DNA from: Octopus vulgaris
Taxonomy: Eukaryota
Assembly: GCA_951406725.2 (NCBI GenBank)
Contig: OX597818.1
Location: 33,542,001-33,606,000 of the forward strand
Reading direction: 5' to 3'
Length of the DNA stretch: 64,000 nt
Both the position numbers and the translations under genes were made by a program. This document shows positions 18,555-47,697 of the stretch, one piece after another. Position 1 is the first letter of the stretch; each line of letters begins with the position of its first letter. Under the pieces are notes generated by a model, which did no database searches, was not told the origin of the DNA, and was given only the letters and a program-made list of their open reading frames with translations.

Positions 18555-21500
18555 AACGCATGGAAATCTCTGAAGGTGACCCACCCAACATCATTGCAGT
18601 GGCACTTAAAAGTAGTAATTTTTTCTAGAACTACAGCCCAGGTAGAGCGCAAAAAACACGAATTACTCCGTTCTTATTCTCTAATTAGACAGCATATAGA
18701 CACACTAGACCTCATCCTGGGAGGAAACTGCTCCAAGGATGACAGAAAAGAATGAAAGAAACCTCCAGAGCCCAACAATCCCTCGAAGGAAGAAAACAAA
18801 AGCCACGTCTGAGGGGCCTGCAAATGAGTGAAACAATGATACTGGTTCGGCCTCCATCACGCCAGAAGACCAAAGAGGTGTGAGAGCCGAAAGAAGAAAA
18901 TATGAAGACAAACCCAACAAAATAAAAGCTGTCAAAAGCAACGAAGAACGAAGAGTCAAAGAAAGGAAACAGGAGAAACAACCGAATATGCTGATACGAA
19001 ATGGAGGTTCCCCAACAGAAGCTACAGGAGTTGGAAGGGCAAAAGCAGGAACTCTTGCAAATTCTACCAGCAAGTACACTGCTGGTACGGTGCTGATGAT
19101 GCAAACTGTCGCTTTGCACACTGGAAGCCCTGCCAAAACCACATGGGCCCCAGACAACACTCCCTTCCCCGAAGAGGACAAAAGGAAAGGCACCAAAGTA
19201 GTAAAAATAGCACACTGTCTACTTCAGAAAGACAATATGCAGACGCAGTGCGCGGTCCAGCAAACGGCTAGCTTCATCCAGGTGTGAAAAGGGTGGCAGC
19301 TGAATAGCAATCTTTTATGTGCATGGCACAAAAGATTGTCCAGCATCTGACCTGGCTTCAAACCCAAGCCTAGAACTACGCCACCAACACCACCAACAGA
19401 TACAGGATGGCAACCACTAACACCAACACACACATTACAAAGATATATCTTTTGAATACAGGAGGGCTGTTACATGGCAACAGTAAATCAAAAATCTCAT
19501 TCCTGAGAGACCTTGCGACATGCAATCAAGCTTTATGCATGACACTTGTAGAAATGCATCTTAGACATGATATAGGGGATGCCACAATATGTTGTCATAC
19601 GCTCAAACAGAAAGGAGAGGAGCCATGGTGGAGTTGCTGTGTACATCCGAGAGGACCTCACGCCCTAGGTCCTGCTGTTATATTCTAATTCAGTGTGTGA
19701 CACTCTAATTGTACACATAAGACAACTTAATATTGTTATATGTACTACACATCGCCCACCAGATGCTCTGAGTCATACAGACAAATTTGAAGACTGCTTA
19801 GTAAAGATAGGAGAAGTTCTCATCAAACTGGAATAACACATTAATGTATTCCTTTTGGGTGACTTTAACATCCCAAACATAGAATGGAATGGTTTGGAGG
19901 ATAGATTCTCCCAGGAATGACACACCAACAGCAAACACAAGCAGAGTCCCTGCTCCAACTTACAAATCCCTCTTCCATGGAACAAAACATGCTGCAACCA
20001 GCCAGGGCAAATAATATACCGGATCTCAGCTTCACAAACAATATGGACATTATCCATAATGCTAAAGTGACACCGACGCTGATCTCGGATCACATTATAA
20101 TAGAACTGTCTATGTATGGACCAAAAGCTACTGCAGACATGCAGCCTATACGAAGCACCCAAAATCTCTCCAAACTAAACTTTCACAAAGTAAATTGGAA
20201 GCTGATTGAGAAAGAGATCCTCAAGCAGGATTGCCCTAAATGTCTCTCCACACCAGACATTGATATGAAACACAAACATTTCATGTCCATAATACAAGCA
20301 TTGTATGACAAATCTGTCCCATTGTGCAAGGCCAACATACACAAAAACGGGATCCCCAGAGAAATAAAAATTCTTATGAGACGATGGACAAAGATTACGA
20401 ACCGCCTGAGCAAGCATCCCAAAAGTGGCGATAAATCTCGTCTGGAGAGAGTGCTATTGGAAACTGAGAAATGCCTGCATCAGTCTCATGAAAATGAGAG
20501 AGCAGATAAAGAAGCTTTGTTTATAGAAAATATCAAGTCAAACTCTAAAGCCTTCTTTACGTTTGCCAATAAACACCCTTGATACGCCACAAGATAGGAC
20601 CCCTCTTCCAAAAAGGAAACCCCATGAGGGTAAGTGAAATATTGAACGAACAGTTCCAAAGTGTACTCACTATACCGCTGTAATACAGGCTAGTGAACAA
20701 ACCAGTGGAATTCTTTGACACATTACCTAAAACCAAAGAGGTTGGAAAAATTGAGTACATAAACATTGAAGAAGATGTAATTCTGGCCATAGATGAGGTT
20801 GACACAAACTCAGCGGCTGGCGTGAATGGGTTTCCGGCGTTCCTACTCAAATCATGAAGCATGCTCTTACAAAACCACAGCAGTTTTTCTTACAGAGCTT
20901 CAATGCAAGAGGTAAGCTCCTAGAGAAATTGAAGGAAGGAATAATATGCCCTATCCATAAGGAAGGAAGCAGAGCAGATGCTAAAAATTATAGGCCTATA
21001 TCTCTGACCTCATACATCAGTAAAGTCAAGGAACGAATAGTCCGCGAGTAACTAATCACATTCCTAGAAGAAAATGACTTGCTGACTGACACCCAGCATG
21101 GATTTCGTCCAGGTGGAAAATGACTCAAGTGTGGATGTAATATATCTCGACTTTGCAAAAGCCTTTCATAAAATTCACTATGGTATGATATGTCACAAAC
21201 TGCGCGATCTCGGCATATGCAGAAAACTTGGAGAATGGCTGCACAACATTCTAAAGGATAGACGTGAGACAGTAGTGGCAAATGGAGCCACCTCCAAGGA
21301 AACGCAAATTGCAAGTGGTGTTCCACAGGGCACTGTCTTGGGGCCACTGCTGTTCATAGTAGCCCTCTAAGACATGCCCTCGGCTGCTCAGCTAGCCACC
21401 CTTGCTAGGTATGCAGATGACACAAAAGTCTCTCAAACAGTACAAAATCCTGCAAATATTGCACATCTGCAACGGGAGTTGGACGCAATATACAAGTGGG

Positions 21501-22160
21501 CTGAGGATGACAACATGCAGTTCAATGCAGGAAAATTCCAGGCCCTACGCTACCAGCACACGAAGCTAAACAACATGCAGACAGGATACACTGGCCTAGG
21601 AGGAACTGAAATGCCTCAAATCAGTGCGTGACCTGGACAATGACATGAGCAATGATGCATCTTTCCAAGTGCATATTACCAATTTGGTAATAAAATGCAG
21701 ATGGCTCGCTGGCTGGATCCTCTGAACTTTCCAAACAAGAGAAAAAGTGACATTGATTATCCTTTGGAGGAAATACGTTCTCAGCCGCTTAGACTATTGC
21801 TCCCAACAATGGTTACCACACGATAAAAAATTCACGGCGGAAGCCGAAACAATCAGACGGAGCTACATTAAGAAAATCGTCTCCATGCAACATGTCAGCA
21901 ACCGGAAAAGACTTAAAGAATTAAAACTCTTCTTTCTGGAAAGAAGGTAGGAGAGATATGCAGTTGTATACATCTGGAAAATCCTAGAAGGCCCTGTAAT
22001 AGACTTTAGCTTTGAAAGTTACTCAAACTCTAGAACGGGGCTCCACCGCGTAGTGCCAAAGATTCCAGCATCGCCATCAAAATACAGGACCAAATACTGC
22101 AACAGCTTGGGTATCAAGGGCTCACAGCTCTTTAATATCCTTCCAAAATGCCTGAGAGAC
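18555..22160 (+). mobile_element. Nearly full-length decayed CR1-group LINE (ORF1 remnant, APE endonuclease, reverse transcriptase)
   Basis: APE motifs LNTGGL, SHGGVAVYIREDL, HRPPD, LLGDFNIPNIEW, SDH. RT motifs NYRPISLTS, QHGFRPG, VDVIYLDFAKAF, SGVPQGTVLGPLLF, YADDTKV, MQFNAGKF, SRLDYCS. Many stops and frameshifts; 3' UTR missing. Confidence 0.92.
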
Positions 22161-22209
22161 TTTTCATTCTTTTTTTGTCTTACCATTTCTATCTATCTAT
22201 CTATCTATA

Positions 22210-22730: not shown

Positions 22731-23323
22731 GCAGACTATAAAACTGGAGAAATTCATATGTATGCATAGATATGGAAGCCAAATAACTTATATATATATA
22801 AGAAGAAAAACCTGAATTTAAAGAGTGGAGAAGAAAAGGAACGTAGTTTCCATAGAAACGTAGACCGCTCGTTGTCCACGAGAAGAACTGCCAGGAACAA
22901 TAATCTTCCGCAGTTCCAATGCTTGCCATTCTTGTGTCAGGTAATTTCTCTAGTTTCTCCATAATTAGGTTGATTTACACGGGCGACTACAGTTAAGACG
23001 CTTTCTAACATATCGACCGGAAGAAGGACTAGAAAATGTATTTCGTATGTGTATGTGAATATATATTACTATATATGTGTTGTTATGCCTATGTATGCCT
23101 GTAGGTTTATGCGTGTGAAGTTGTATCAAAATTGCACATCTACAAATTGACAGGTATAGATGTGTATTCATACATTTATACATAAAATATAACAATATAA
23201 TTATAAAATAAATAAATATGTATGTATATATATATATATATATATATATAGTAAATTCAGGGTGAATACTTGATAAATGTGAGCACCTGTATATGCTGTA
23301 TATGCCAGCTAGTAGCAGAGGTG

Positions 23324-23410
23324 AAAGGATATATGTATCAAATGAAATAAAAAACAGACATCCTTTGTGTTCTGTTTTTTATTTCATTTGATACATATAT
23401 ATGTCCTTTT
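23324..23410. repeat. About 35-bp inverted repeat (hairpin)
   Basis: AAAGGATATATGTATCAAATGAAATAAAAAACAGA, short spacer, then TCTGTTTTTTATTTCATTTGATACATATAT. Confidence 0.9.
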
Positions 23411-23979
23411 TTGTGTTCCTAGCACTAGGCTTCCTTATTTGGGAGCCCTTAATTATATTTCTATAAGAATAATATTTTTCTGTATGAATAATATTTTGTC
23501 TAATGACTAATTCGTCTTTTGTGCTAGGCCACTGGTAATAATAATCTATGTTATTACCCTTTTTGATTATATTCACATATTACTTGATAGATTTGTTCGT
23601 AAATATGTTGCGTCTGCACAGAGGTTTGAAAAGTTAAGATTTACAAAATGTTTAGATCGACACATGGTCTAACACTCTGTGCATCTAGAATTAACAAAGG
23701 CGTCCCGCTGATGAACCTGGCCTTGGCAAACTTATTCTGTCTATTTTGCTAGAAAGAGGTAGAAACTGATCAGTCCGGGATATATCATTAATGGTAAATG
23801 CTTTTGATTTTCACTCTCGATGAACTTATCCCTTTTTGTGTCCCTAGCACAAGGCCTCCTTATTTGGGAGCCCTTAATTATATTTCTATATGAATAATAT
23901 TTTGTCTAATGACTAATTCGTCTTTTGTGCTTGGCCACTGGTAATAATAATCTATGTTATTACCCTTTTTGATTATATT

Positions 23980-23983
<4 letters not shown>
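23404..23983 (+). mobile_element. Direct-repeat module (about 155-175 bp repeats, period about 425 bp) enclosing a hammerhead; Penelope pLTR-like or retrozyme-like
   Basis: 23404-23577 is repeated at 23830-23983 with the hammerhead between them. Confidence 0.7.
23702..23781 (+). ncRNA. Type I hammerhead ribozyme, near-canonical
   Basis: GTCCCG-CTGATGA-ACCT...AGGT-a-GAAA-CTGATCAG-TC-CGGGAT. Six-bp stem I, intact core, palindromic stem III, GUC cleavage triplet; one extra A before GAAA. Confidence 0.8.
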
Positions 23984-24040
<57 letters not shown>

Positions 24041-26300: not shown

Positions 26301-26807
26301 TTTACCTTTCATCATTTCGGAGTCGAGCATTGGGATCGATGTAATCGCCCAGCTCCCTCCCCCGAAATTGCTGGCCTGGTGCCCTAATTTGAAACCTATA
26401 TTACCAACAACAAGTGTGAAATAAATATATTTACCTGTCATCATTTCGGAGTCGAGCGTTGGGATCGATGTAATTGCCTAGCTCCCACTCCCGAAATTGC
26501 TGGCCTGGTGCCCTAATTTGAAACCTATATTACCAACAACAAGTTTGAAATAAATATATTTACCTGTCATCATTTCGGAGTCGAGCGTTGGGATCGATGT
26601 AATTGCCTAGCTCCCTCCACCGAAATTGCTGGCCTGGTGCCCTAATTTGAAACCGATATTACCAACAACAGGTGTGAAATAAATATATTTACCTTTCATC
26701 ATTTCGGAGTCGAGCATTGGGATCGATGTTATCGCCTAGCTCCCTCCACCGAAATTGCTGGCCTGGTGCCCTAATTTGAAACCGATATTACCAACAACAA
26801 GTGTGAA
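26301..26807 (+). repeat. 129-bp tandem array, about 3.9 copies, derived from SINE-B 3' half plus flank
   Basis: Units start TTTACC at 26301, 26430, 26559 and 26688 and are near-identical. Confidence 0.95.
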
Positions 26808-37689: not shown

Positions 37690-38309
37690 TTTGGATGAGG
37701 TGGGTGAAGAGAAAAAATATAATATAATAAAATATAATAGAATATATGGGAGCATGTGTTTCGGTATTTATTATAATGTAGCATATGCTTGTAATTATTA
37801 AATATTAGCTAAATAAATATGTAAATTAGAGATTACTTTATTTTAAGTAGGAATAGCGTATTGCGTAATAATGAGAAAAACGGAATATTTATCATTATGA
37901 ATTATGATCGATTTTTGCTAAGGTATATTAAAACTATTTAGTAGTTAAACCGAATATTGATATCTAAAGATAACTAAACAAATATGAATTACAATATAAT
38001 TTAATTTACTCTGGAAAAGTAAGAAAGAAATAACATATATGCAAGAATTTTATAGGTAGGGAAATATTATCTACGTATATTACGAAAGAAATAATATTGA
38101 ATGATTCTTAGAATATAACTGTTTATATATATATGCATATGTTAGAAATTAGTATATTTATGCAAGATATTATTTATTTTATGTTGTATAAAATTTTAGA
38201 TATAAAGGCTAATATAAGAATCTAATTAATTCAAATTTAGTAAAAATATTAATGGTAAATAAAGAACCTAATAATTAATGATATTAATAATTAAAGGATG
38301 ATTTATCTT

Positions 38310-40340
38310 ATTTATAGAATAGATACTTAAGAGTGTGTAGGCAAAGCGAGAATTTTTAAACTCTCTCGTTTAATAATTTGCTGCTAGAAAAAAGAATATT
38401 ATAGCACTCCGATGTGTAGAGTTGGCAAATTCTATCTGGTGTATGATAAGCTTTTGAAGAACATATAATCTTCCAGCTAATCTTCTAACTGATATTATTG
38501 TCTTTTAGTTTCTAGATGAATTTACTAAGACTAGTCGAAGAACTTTTGGTGTGGCTTCTAAAAGTATACTCATGGTTGACCAATCTAAGTTTCATATATG
38601 ATTCCGTAGAACCAACGTAGAGAAAGAGTTTATCTTCAGCTTCAAGTATAGCTTGGTATACTTAATTCTTCCGTTTGCAATAATTATTAAATTCACAGTG
38701 CTCTTTACCCTGCAATCACAGAACTTACTAAGACGAATACTAGAATTAGAAGATGGGTTATGTGCAGTAGACTCCCTTTGATTGTTCATATTAGAATATC
38801 CTGACTTTGGTATAACTGTTATATTATGTATTTGTTTATTGAGAATATTATGTTTACGTTTAACGGAAAAATTATCTAATTTAGCATAATTCATAGAAAT
38901 AATTACGGGAAACAGAATGACCAATACTAAAATTCCTACTCTGAATTATGTCACTACATTTGATTTTATGACGGGAGAAGTGTTTGCTTATTATCCGACG
39001 TATGATTTTAATTAAGTTTGTTTTTACTTACTTAACCAGATAATATTCTCCTTTATTTTTACCAGAATTGGGATTAAGTTTGTTATAGTGGATTTTTATA
39101 TAAGATATATATTTTAAATTTCTTTTTATATTGTAAATAATGCTAATGTTGCTATTATTATTGTATGGTCTCATGTTCGTAATGACCTTTTCAGAGGCTA
39201 ATTTATTATTTATATTTTCTGATTTTGGTCATAACTTGCTTTTGGTTTGATATGTTTAGGGAGTAATATATGAATGTTTATATTGTTATCATCAATATCG
39301 AGATAAGCGCTAGTCTTCAGGTCTCTCTTTATCGTTTCTACTACCCTATTTCCATGCTGGTTATTTTTGTTCAGTATACAGTTATTATATAATCTATTAG
39401 TTCTTTTATCGGTATTTACTTTGTTAATCATAGCTTTAGTCTTAAGTCTTTTTGTATCTAGGTTATATTTTCCATCTTGTAGAAGCTTTTGCTTGTTATT
39501 AATCATATGTGAACCATTCTTGATATGTTTAATTTTTTTGTTTGTACCCTGTTTTACCCAGTGTAGTATTATATAATTACTTCTTATCGTTAAAGATATC
39601 TTCGTTAGATGAGAGGTAATTTATTCTTTTTTCGATGTTGTTGACTAAACAAATTAAAATAGACTTTGGTTGATTACTTTTTGTATTAATATAGGGTATT
39701 GTGGAGTTAAGCTTATGGTATTGCAAATAATTTCCAATATTCAGGTTTAAATTCACATGTAATTAACTGAGCTATTCTCTGTTCCATTTGAAATATCAAA
39801 TCCAAATCGGTTAAAGAACTGCTAGAATTTTTTCTTGTATAATTCTAGCTTTCTATTTGAAGGTTTATTTTAGCTAAATGCATAAGCATTATATATAGGA
39901 TCTAACTTCTTAAACTTATTGGTAAATTGCCTGCATCCTTTCAAGAAATATGTTAACCTTAGTTCTATAAGCTCATAAACCCTGACGAGTTTCTACCCCA
40001 TACAGTTGAAAATGATACCAATTCTTAGCAAATACTTAGAATTACGTATCAGCAAGGGGCATGAATCGAAACATATGTGTTGGTTTTTGGCATCTGCCAT
40101 TTCTGTTAGAGCTTTACAATTCATAATATATTTGTATTGTTTTTATAAAAAATTTCAACATCTTTGTATCTTACAAATGAATTATTTATATTTCCATTAT
40201 ACTCCATTTTCTTTCATTCAAGATATATATATATATTTATAACTAACGTTTCTGAGAATTTACTCTCATTATCGTCGGTTATGGAACTTACAAGTAAAAT
40301 AGAACCGCTATTTTGGAATTCATCTTTGTTCATTATTAAA
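38310..40340 (-). mobile_element. Decayed Penelope-like retroelement (RT thumb plus GIY-YIG endonuclease)
   Basis: Minus strand about 39830-39520: FFNRFGFDI...YHKLNSTIPYINTKSNQPKSI...RINYLSSNEDIF...YNTTLGKTGY. About 38730-38320: CDCRVKS..LNNYC..VYQA..LYVGSTESYMKLRLVNHEYTF..STSLSKFI.KLK..ISWKII..CQLYTSE..LLNE. Multiple stops; outer boundaries approximate. Confidence 0.85.
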
Positions 40341-40568
40341 ATGATAAAAGGTGGTTATTTTCTAATTTACATATATATATATATATATATAGTATATTAT
40401 CATATAGTATATTATCATATAGTATATTATATTTTGTGAAATTTGATTTAGTATTTCTAAATTGAATTTTTCCCTGTAAGTTTGGAATAATATTCCCTCA
40501 TTTGATATATATATTTATATATGTATGTGTGTGTGTGTCATATCATATGTATGAGTAAATATGCAAAT

Positions 40569-45798: not shown

Positions 45799-47484
45799 CC
45801 AACAATAATGAGAACAATATCTTTTTCTTGGTCAGAAGTACCAGAGAAACGAGGACTGAGAAGAAGTTTTACACCGAGGAAGAGGTAAAATGAACGAGAG
45901 AGATATATCGATGAGTAATAGCAAAAAGTATAAAAATAACAAAACAGAACAAGAAAAATAAACCAGAAAATATGAATACGGCAACCACAAAGGTGACCTG
46001 AAGCGCGCCACACACACACACACAACCCTAACCCAAACCTGAAAGTAAGTGGTTAAATTCGCCTTGCACATAAGGATATAATTTCAGCTAATGATGTTGA
46101 TATTACATATCTCAATCACCTGTATTATGCTTCCGCGAAGATTTCAACGATTCTATGTGATGAAAAGATTAGAAAGCGAAAACATTCCCAGAAGAGTGTA
46201 TTCGACACAAAATTCAGCTACTAAGGTCTGACATAGAATGTTTAAAAAACCTTTAGTTTGACAAAACTATCAAACCCACAAAAATCCGAAAATTAAAGAA
46301 AAAGTATAATATAAAAACCATACTTGACATCGATACCACCATCGAAACCAACAAGCAAAATGTATGTGCTAAAGCTGCCCGCATATCACGATTTGAAAGG
46401 CACTTTTTATTCTTCAAGGACAACAACATGTTCAAAAATAACCCCATAAACTTTTACAGGAAGATAAGGAAAATACCAGTTAAAGTAAAGTATGTTCCAC
46501 CAAAAGAAGAAGTGCAGGAATTTTGGAATAAAGTTTGGGAAGAAGTAAAAGGGCGGCTTCGATTGATAGAATATCTACTGACTTAGACTCCTTAGAGGAG
46601 CAAAAGTGGGAGGGTATCAAGGTAGAGGATGTAAAATCTGCTCTCAGGAAGTCAAGCAAATGGAAATCCCCAAGAAATCCCCAGGAAAGGATGAAATTCT
46701 TAACTTCTGGTTGAATGCCTTCCCAGAGAGACATGAACTGCTAACAAAACTTTACAACAATGTTTTGCAACAACCTAGTATGATTCCCTTTTGGCTAATT
46801 AATGGTGTTATATTCCTACTTCCAAAAAAATGAAGGAACAATAACAACAATGTATAAATTTCTAACATCCCGTCTTGACTAAATATACCAAATTTTTTAA
46901 TAGAAAGTGGCATATTCTCTAATGTGCAAAAAGGATTTAAATGTTAGTCCTATGGTTGTAAAGATCAGATACTCATCAACAAGATGATCTTGGAAGATTG
47001 TCACACACGACGCAAAAATCTTGTCGATAGCCTGGATAGACTATAAAAAAGCTTTTGATAGTCTACCACATATCTGGATTAAGCAATGTCTGGAAGTGTA
47101 TAGAATTGCACCTTCTCTGCGAAACTTATTGTCTGTAAGTATGAGATCATGGAGAATGACACTGACTTTGAACAGTAACAATGAATCTCTCAATGCTGGA
47201 GATGTAAAAATTCAATGTGGAATTTTCCATGGTGACTCTCCATCACCAGTCCTCTTTTGTCTAGCCTTAATACCTTTCTCGAAATTGCTCGATGGTGTAC
47301 AATATTGCTATAAAATGTCTGATAAAAATATAAATCATCTCTTTTACATGAATGATTTAGAGCCCTTTGTGATAAATGACCAACAACTACAGGGATTACT
47401 AGCAATTGTTAAACAATTCAGTGATGACATTAGCATATGCCAATACACACAGACAGAGAAATTAAAGCGAATAGGCCAGATATA

Positions 47485-47697
47485 CAGTTCTATATTTAAG
47501 AGATGAGGAACTATGTACATTATTTAATATATAATAATAACATCAACAACAACATCGAAAAATACCTTAGAAATGAGAACCCAGGTTCGAAATTTCCCCA
47601 AGACACCTGATGAAGGCTAGAGGGTATATCAACCGAAACGTTGTGTGTTAACAACAAACAAGATGAGGACAAAATCCGTCAAAATGTAAATAATGTA
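47485..47697 (+). mobile_element. About 213-bp hammerhead-containing insertion inside the R4/Dong element
   Basis: Interrupts the NRPDI|VV coding run. Flanked by AATAGGCCAGATATA (47470-47484) and AATAAGGCTAGATATA (47698-47713). Confidence 0.8.
47603..47646 (+). ncRNA. Minimal type I hammerhead ribozyme
   Basis: ACAC-CTGATGA-a-GGCTAG...CAACC-GAAA-CG-TT-GTGT. Intact core, AACGTT palindrome, imperfect stem II. Confidence 0.7.

Follow-up and report, generated by a model that had tools for sequence, protein, structure and literature searches.

A multi-copy, non-coding repeat with a predicted hammerhead ribozyme in a (TA)n tract of the Octopus vulgaris genome, probably related to Penelope-like elements

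We analysed a 64,000-nucleotide stretch of the Octopus vulgaris genome (hereafter the window, whose positions are used throughout) and identified an insert of about 730 bases (23251-23983), non-coding and located within a TA microsatellite tract. The explanation that we find somewhat more probable than not is that the insert represents 1.4 units of a non-coding, multi-copy repeat of about 406 nt with a predicted dimer-type hammerhead ribozyme, likely derived from the pseudo-LTRs of Penelope-like elements (PLEs), and that it was copied into (TA)n by the reverse transcriptase (RT) and endonuclease of an autonomous PLE, along with part of a second repeat family in inverted orientation. The ribozyme-bearing family is termed F2 and the second family F1; the parts of the insert and its borders are as follows:

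23208..23250, no strand: left (TA)n microsatellite, found with TRF, the likely insertion target
23251..23358, minus strand: inverted 3'-terminal piece of the second multi-copy family, F1, its 3' end abutting (TA)n according to the contig data
23329..23400, no strand: fold-back with arms 23329-23358 and 23371-23400, read from the contigs as a head-to-head inverted junction of two F1 pieces
23357..23402, plus strand: direct F1 piece, preceded by the 3' half of a hammerhead in two contigs of sequencing run X8 (records 19 and 20)
23404..23577, plus strand: A, the 3' part of the F2 unit, a truncated copy on the upstream side in which 19 nt are duplicated at about 23464-23482
23578..23828, plus strand: X, the rest of the F2 unit, with the hammerhead inside; the A-X junction occurs in contigs of runs X2 (record 6), X8 (record 21) and X9 (record 28)
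23702..23781, plus strand: type I hammerhead motif, recognised by core, stem I, helix III, NUH, a descriptor search and its variation in the family
23829..23983, plus strand: A', the second copy of A; the element ends about 203-208 nt past the predicted cut
23980..24040, no strand: right (CA)n(TA)n microsatellite, from tandem-repeat analysis

The direct part of the insert is a partial tandem with the layout A-X-A', in which A and A' are spaced by 425 nt and are identical at 150 of 155 nt when the 19-nt duplication in A is excluded. A' and X (251 nt) together measure 406 nt with a GC content of 35%. The initial annotation had proposed about 1.4 tandem units of a roughly 425-bp monomer; the direct repeat and the number of units were found as described, but the monomer is shorter, because the spacing of 425 includes the duplication in A. 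Its microsatellites on both sides were recovered, as was its lack of an ORF: inside the unit no ORF of at least 120 aa was found, the interval between the repeats A and A' holds no ORF for RT and GIY-YIG, X is without an ORF, no reading frame lies 3' of the hammerhead in the unit, and three stop-free frames that touch or flank the insert edges had no Pfam match. A target-site duplication of at least 8 nt was not found outside simple repeats, BLAST of the region against the 64-kb window returned no further copy, and the window contains no tRNA genes. Read in the sense of the hammerhead, the insert has a 3' end on either side, facing the microsatellites. A partial tandem, an inverted 5' copy with a palindrome and a microsatellite target, the features by which a PLE-mobilised insertion is recognised, are all present.

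The hammerhead consists of a 6-bp stem I (23702-23707 with 23776-23781), CUGAUGA (23708-23714), GAAA (23762-23765) and GUC (23773-23775), all at the positions already given in the initial annotation, and the cut is predicted after 23775. To call it near-canonical, as had been done, was an overstatement: helix II spans 46 nt (23715-23760) in two tiers (4 bp, a 4x4 internal loop, 8 bp), the G10.1-C11.1 pair is absent and helix II is flanked by A23715 and A23761, the latter an extra A ahead of GAAA, helix III is palindromic, and there is no Rfam match. No variant at 23761 occurred among the 40 of 67 difference rows listed. Since the core junction departs from the PLE consensus with its G10.1-C11.1 pair (PMC4209133, in excerpt), activity is uncertain. 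At the base of helix II (23716-23719) two haplotypes were observed, and one pairing register would put A opposite A at 10.1-11.1.

Helix III is a 10-nt palindrome (23765-23774) of the dimer type, with a predicted self-duplex of -13.6 kcal/mol. The hammerhead is not the minimum-energy fold (z -0.55): it was calculated at -16.1, against -22.5 for an alternative that pairs the core with the palindrome, and because this alternative is the more stable one, the prediction is an inactive ribozyme in a lone copy and an active one in a pair. A descriptor comprising the hammerhead core, a 5-bp stem I and a palindromic helix III matched the window twice (23708 and 39982), and only one of 100 dinucleotide-shuffled windows contained any match. 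At the Rfam gathering score there were no hammerhead matches in the window and neither descriptor site was recognised; up to E 10, 28 weak matches appeared with no hammerhead model among them, mostly microRNA models on the hairpin, which we dismissed as generic hairpin matches. Motif scans of metagenome contigs (two of two) and of viral contigs gave no match, and the single match in a prokaryote genome extends over 22 nt only and was attributed to chance.

A search of sequencing runs listed 24, of which 20, from four coded organisms, hold part of the stretch and none more than a quarter of its words; four of the 24 (X2, X3, X8 and X9, from three organisms) were aligned as contigs, to 23252-23830 only. 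Runs X8 and X9 are presumably RNA and, being available as contigs only, are uninformative on expression, ends or circles. Family contigs were present in all four runs (375, 1024, 11 and 106), and because these numerous contigs are in many cases only 90-95% alike, F2 is a dispersed multi-copy repeat family. X-to-A joints in X2 and X9 measure 424-426 nt in window coordinates, or 405-407 nt without the duplication, and the A-to-X junction is crossed in the three contigs named above; as both unit junctions thus exist in contigs, the unit closes on itself without an ORF. Among the contigs listed, none contained a whole unit or two hammerheads. The 19-nt duplicated form at 23482 accounts for about 45 of a depth of 101,931 in X2 and for 0 of 3,203 in X3, and the duplication looks private to this locus.

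Variation of the hammerhead within the family includes U>C at N7, C>U wobbles at 23705 and 23776 and G>A at 23778 (the stem I changes amount to wobbles or a likely compensation), a cut-site C>A with NUH preserved, and a 2-nt deletion at 23769 after which helix III stays palindromic. The changes in the ribozyme frame, taken from 40 of 67 rows listed and several of them from one X9 contig, therefore appear mostly tolerated, the predicted structure being kept. Multi-copy status, both unit junctions and structure-keeping variation support the original proposal of a reverse-transcribed, ribozyme-bearing repeat of the retrozyme or Penelope type. One X9 contig carries 32 extra letters at 23603 that form a GC-rich hairpin; loose ends at 23598 and 23608 (X3, X9) agree with an insert of about 32 letters there, and some F2 units may measure about 438 nt.

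The depth of the family is strongly biased to its 3' end. Summed depth at 23512-23531 compared with 23692-23711 is 250,030 to 2,884 in X2, 9,769 to 230 in X3 and 1,689 to 34 in X9, i.e., 42-87 times higher near the 3' end (the end of A) than over the core, where summed contig depth does not equal copy number and the 3' excess may partly represent a module common to sister families. Such families are possible, as family contigs hold diverged sequence ahead of 23477. Loose ends behind 23542 and 23549 lead into TA-rich tails. The strong bias argues against random circular permutation, and the depth pattern fits a preferred 3' end better; random circular permutation of the copies, for which the initial annotation had suggested a check, is therefore not supported.

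The fold-back has perfect 30-bp arms, a 12-nt loop and about 6 bp more past a 4-nt bulge, in agreement with the 35-bp inverted repeat noted previously at the left edge, and folded as DNA it reaches z -11.8, with none of 200 shuffles as good. Its earlier assignment to the same module as the hammerhead was not upheld, because the hairpin comes from F1 and its junction to A is near single-copy depth. Single contigs (X2 record 1, X3 record 9) run uninterrupted through 23252-23358 and diverge from the window thereafter; the summed depth of F1 at 23252-23291 is 139,511-171,320 in X2. Loose ends behind 23354 and 23358 read the reverse complement of the hairpin loop, so the F1 family is without the fold-back and the window holds two F1 pieces joined head to head. 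At 23403, the junction of F1 and A, depth is 127 (X2), 34 (X3) and 15 (X9), with neighbouring bins of about 10,000 in X2, which means that this junction is rare.

Just ahead of 23357, two X8 contigs contain GAAA, a palindrome and NUH, i.e., the 3' half of a hammerhead (a 30-nt consensus from one run); the 5' half of this F1 ribozyme was not seen in the two contigs. The predicted F1 cut lies 4-6 nt ahead of the fold-back junction. Thirteen nucleotides of an F1 loose end match the window at 40066-40078. Among F1, F2 and the flank of the hammerhead at 39982, no homology was detectable, and all six local alignments fell in the range of shuffles (z -0.6 to 1.0). A likeness of the left piece to X that was noticed by eye scored 32, within the shuffle range (maximum 39), and was discarded. 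The F1 piece has a 9-nt tandem duplication at 23283-23300 that is absent in a number of family contigs.

The window also contains, at 38300-40370 on the minus strand and 14-16 kb from the insert, a decayed, 5'-truncated PLE of the Neptune/Nematis type. Its tblastn matches cover the end of the RT (39762-39535) and the endonuclease (38712-38311), both on the minus strand, and its coding pieces (38.3-39.8 kb) have 2,275 relatives at E<=0.001, with relatives among them that carry the RT motif YRDD, a cysteine linker and a GIY-YIG-type end. The cysteine linker is a mark of Neptune and Nematis, according to excerpts of PMC8557442. Pfam recognised neither the endonuclease of the remnant nor any of eight long relatives, and the assignment to PLEs is based on the motifs visible in relatives together with tblastn. 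The second descriptor site belongs to this remnant: its core at 39982 and GAAA at 40068 lie on the plus strand, inverted relative to the coding pieces, with a helix II of about 80 nt and a palindromic helix III, about 290 nt ahead of (TA)n, and the inverted piece of the remnant (39.8-40.4 kb) contains the whole hammerhead. Downstream of its ORF no second hammerhead core was found. Local alignment gave no significant homology between F2 and the remnant at 38.3-40.4 kb; the remnant documents suitable machinery, and an inverted architecture like that of the insert, in this genome, and a partnership with F2 is not implied by the sequence.

Other mobile sequences were observed in the window. On the plus strand at 18700-22200 there is a decayed non-LTR retrotransposon that ends near a microsatellite at 22190, with an endonuclease-like part at 19905-20579 (weak Pfam match, E 0.016) and an RT at 21086-21628 (E 5e-18), and a reverse transcriptase fragment lies at 46988-47506 (Pfam RVT_1, E 2.8e-08). 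Two tandem repeats, at 2316-2776 (184 nt, 2.5 copies) and 26301-26807 (129 nt, 3.9 copies), look SINE-derived, and the 184-nt repeat is one that we take to be octopus-like.

For the insert, these observations suggest the following scenario. Tandem F2 units would be transcribed into a multimeric RNA, a PLE endonuclease would nick the (TA)n DNA, and the nick would prime reverse transcription, which would begin at a favoured position some 200 nt downstream of the ribozyme site. The cDNA would then cover 1.4 units and be linked to F1 through a TCCTTT microhomology, in one and the same event (by a template switch and second-strand priming on F1 RNA) or through a second insertion at the TA tract. 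According to the fold predictions, the ribozyme might cut mainly when two copies pair via the 10-nt palindrome, the core of a lone copy being sequestered, and as template we favour an uncut linear multimer over a circle. No autonomous element is tied to F2 by sequence, which counts against this explanation. The 5 differences between A and A' in 155 nt may indicate that later decay or ectopic exchange has reshaped the locus.

Several alternatives have to be weighed against the copying of a linear multimer by a PLE. The insert could be the product of a circle-forming non-LTR retrozyme, in which arrays with at least two hammerheads free a 406-nt monomer that a host ligase circularises, the locus being a rolling-circle cDNA of 1.4 turns. 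The two unit junctions in the contigs would be expected, size and the 35% GC match animal retrozymes such as those of mussel (350-390 nt; excerpts of PMC7229834), and the predicted circle (MFE -89.8, 66% paired, z -2.4, three of 100 shuffles as good) lends mild support. However, the locus has a single hammerhead, too few to free a monomer by two cuts on its own, none of the listed contigs has two, the depth shows a strong 3' bias and not a flat permutation (though a fixed RT start on a circle could give the same), and the ribozyme belongs to the weak, palindromic kind found in PLEs and lacks a canonical helix II base; we consider this origin unlikely. A little less likely still is that the insert is ordinary debris of an autonomous PLE whose ORF was deleted or truncated so that tandem pseudo-LTRs stayed behind, with no independent non-autonomous family. 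Every structural trait is a PLE trait, the ribozyme resembles the minimal hammerheads of PLEs, and among the rows listed loose ends extend only to 30 nt, so ORF-linked copies are possible; but A runs straight into X in contigs of three runs, 7%-diverged copies included, with no ORF between them, and the hammerhead is not followed by a reading frame. That a chance motif arose in a local duplication is largely refuted: it would suit the missing Rfam hammerhead match and a hammerhead that is not the minimum-energy fold, but neither the rarity of matches in shuffled windows (1 of 100) nor a multi-copy family with structure-keeping variation.

For the left part alone, F1 and F2 may have inserted independently, one next to the other in a single (TA)n tract, and not in one chimeric event, to which we give slightly less than an even chance. 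An (AT)4 run lies between F1 and A at 23395-23402, record 19 of X8 matches 23357-23402 with 0 differences, so that F1 copies may end there, and PLEs tend to land beside earlier copies (PMC6765202); against this, the long F1 form and the beginning of A have in common the TCCTTT microhomology on which the junction falls, and the insert has outward-facing 3' ends on both sides, as in a single inverted PLE insertion. A bolder proposal, which we think improbable, is that one event, with one PLE enzyme serving two unrelated hammerhead families, produced the insert as a chimera, that the fold-back lies 4-6 nt from the predicted F1 cut since the RT reached the 5' end of a self-cleaved RNA and fell off, and that F2 is an active variant in spite of its 46-nt helix II without G10.1-C11.1. 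It draws on one junction and the 30-nt consensus of two contigs, and the whole hammerhead in the inverted piece of the remnant (39.8-40.4 kb) counts against it. If true, the insert would be a genomic footprint of ribozyme-cut RNA serving as template in vivo and aiding the inverted ends of PLEs, a role not found by the in vitro work on Poseidon, and mapping inversion junctions against ribozyme cut sites genome-wide would directly test the function of PLE hammerheads.

The family of the insert is likely a non-autonomous, Penelope-derived repeat of the retrozyme type with a predicted ribozyme, a class already known in many animals, and its members are likely ordinary parasites of such retrotransposons; through our analysis, the known class of hammerhead repeats derived from PLEs gains another animal lineage, together with a ribozyme variant whose helix II is very long. 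Among the papers listed on hammerhead ribozymes in octopus, no such element was apparent from title or beginning of the abstract. The repeat annotation of Octopus vulgaris lists active Penelope families, and the word ribozyme is absent from the excerpted passages (PMC13282606).

The published systems are compared here as they are described in excerpts of the cited papers. The metazoan non-LTR retrozymes (Cervera and de la Pena 2020, PMC7229834; Li et al. 2026, bioRxiv 10.64898/2026.07.22.740005) resemble F2 in a non-coding head-to-tail unit of a few hundred nt and low GC, in a type I hammerhead, in being multi-copy and in their co-occurrence with PLEs; they have been argued to derive from PLE pseudo-LTRs (bioRxiv 10.64898/2026.07.22.740005). 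Of the features that define them, F2 has the type I hammerhead in the unit, albeit with a variant helix II base and no Rfam match, a non-coding unit within about 150-450 nt and below 50% GC (406 nt, 35%) and a multi-copy dispersed family (in all four runs), but the locus lacks two or more units in a row that each carry a full hammerhead. With 1.4 units and one ribozyme it falls outside the two-hammerhead definition of an active copy by Li et al., and we therefore file the family as a likely retrozyme member and the locus as a partial copy. It differs further in a helix II of 46 nt, compared with 4 bp in retrozymes, in being joined to a second family, and in a cleavage and a circle that are predicted. 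In the axolotl retrozyme HHR_Amex2, the base of helix II is mismatched as well (PMC7229834), and of nine predicted Xenopus dimers, eight failed to cleave (Li, Clavereau and Pollet 2026, bioRxiv 10.64898/2026.07.22.740005).

The hammerheads in the pseudo-LTRs of PLEs that bear an endonuclease (Cervera and de la Pena 2014, PMC4209133; Frangieh et al. 2024, PMC11167929) are likewise of type I, with a short palindromic helix III that works as a dimer and an enlarged helix II (PMC4209133), and in these elements, as in F2, the end lies 100-200 nt past the ribozyme site. F2 differs from them in having no ORF and a helix II far beyond their 7-8 bp; it shares the palindromic helix III, whereas the conserved G10.1-C11.1 after an unpaired nucleotide (H-G10.1...C11.1 in the PLE consensus) is replaced by A-rich contacts and an extra A before GAAA. 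For Poseidon of anole, fixed internal RT starts downstream of the hammerhead were found in vitro, and cleavage was dispensable for insertion (PMC11167929). PLEs have been described with partial tandems, inverted 5' copies, junction palindromes and microsatellites as targets (Arkhipova et al. 2013, PMC3846280; Craig et al. 2021, PMC8557442), and the insert agrees with such insertions in its upstream truncated copy, its 5' inverted copy with a junction palindrome, its microsatellite target and the absence of a visible target-site duplication. It departs from them in that the family supplying its inverted part shows no detectable homology to the direct one; between the two PLE types studied by Arkhipova et al., cross-mobilisation was not observed (PMC3846280).
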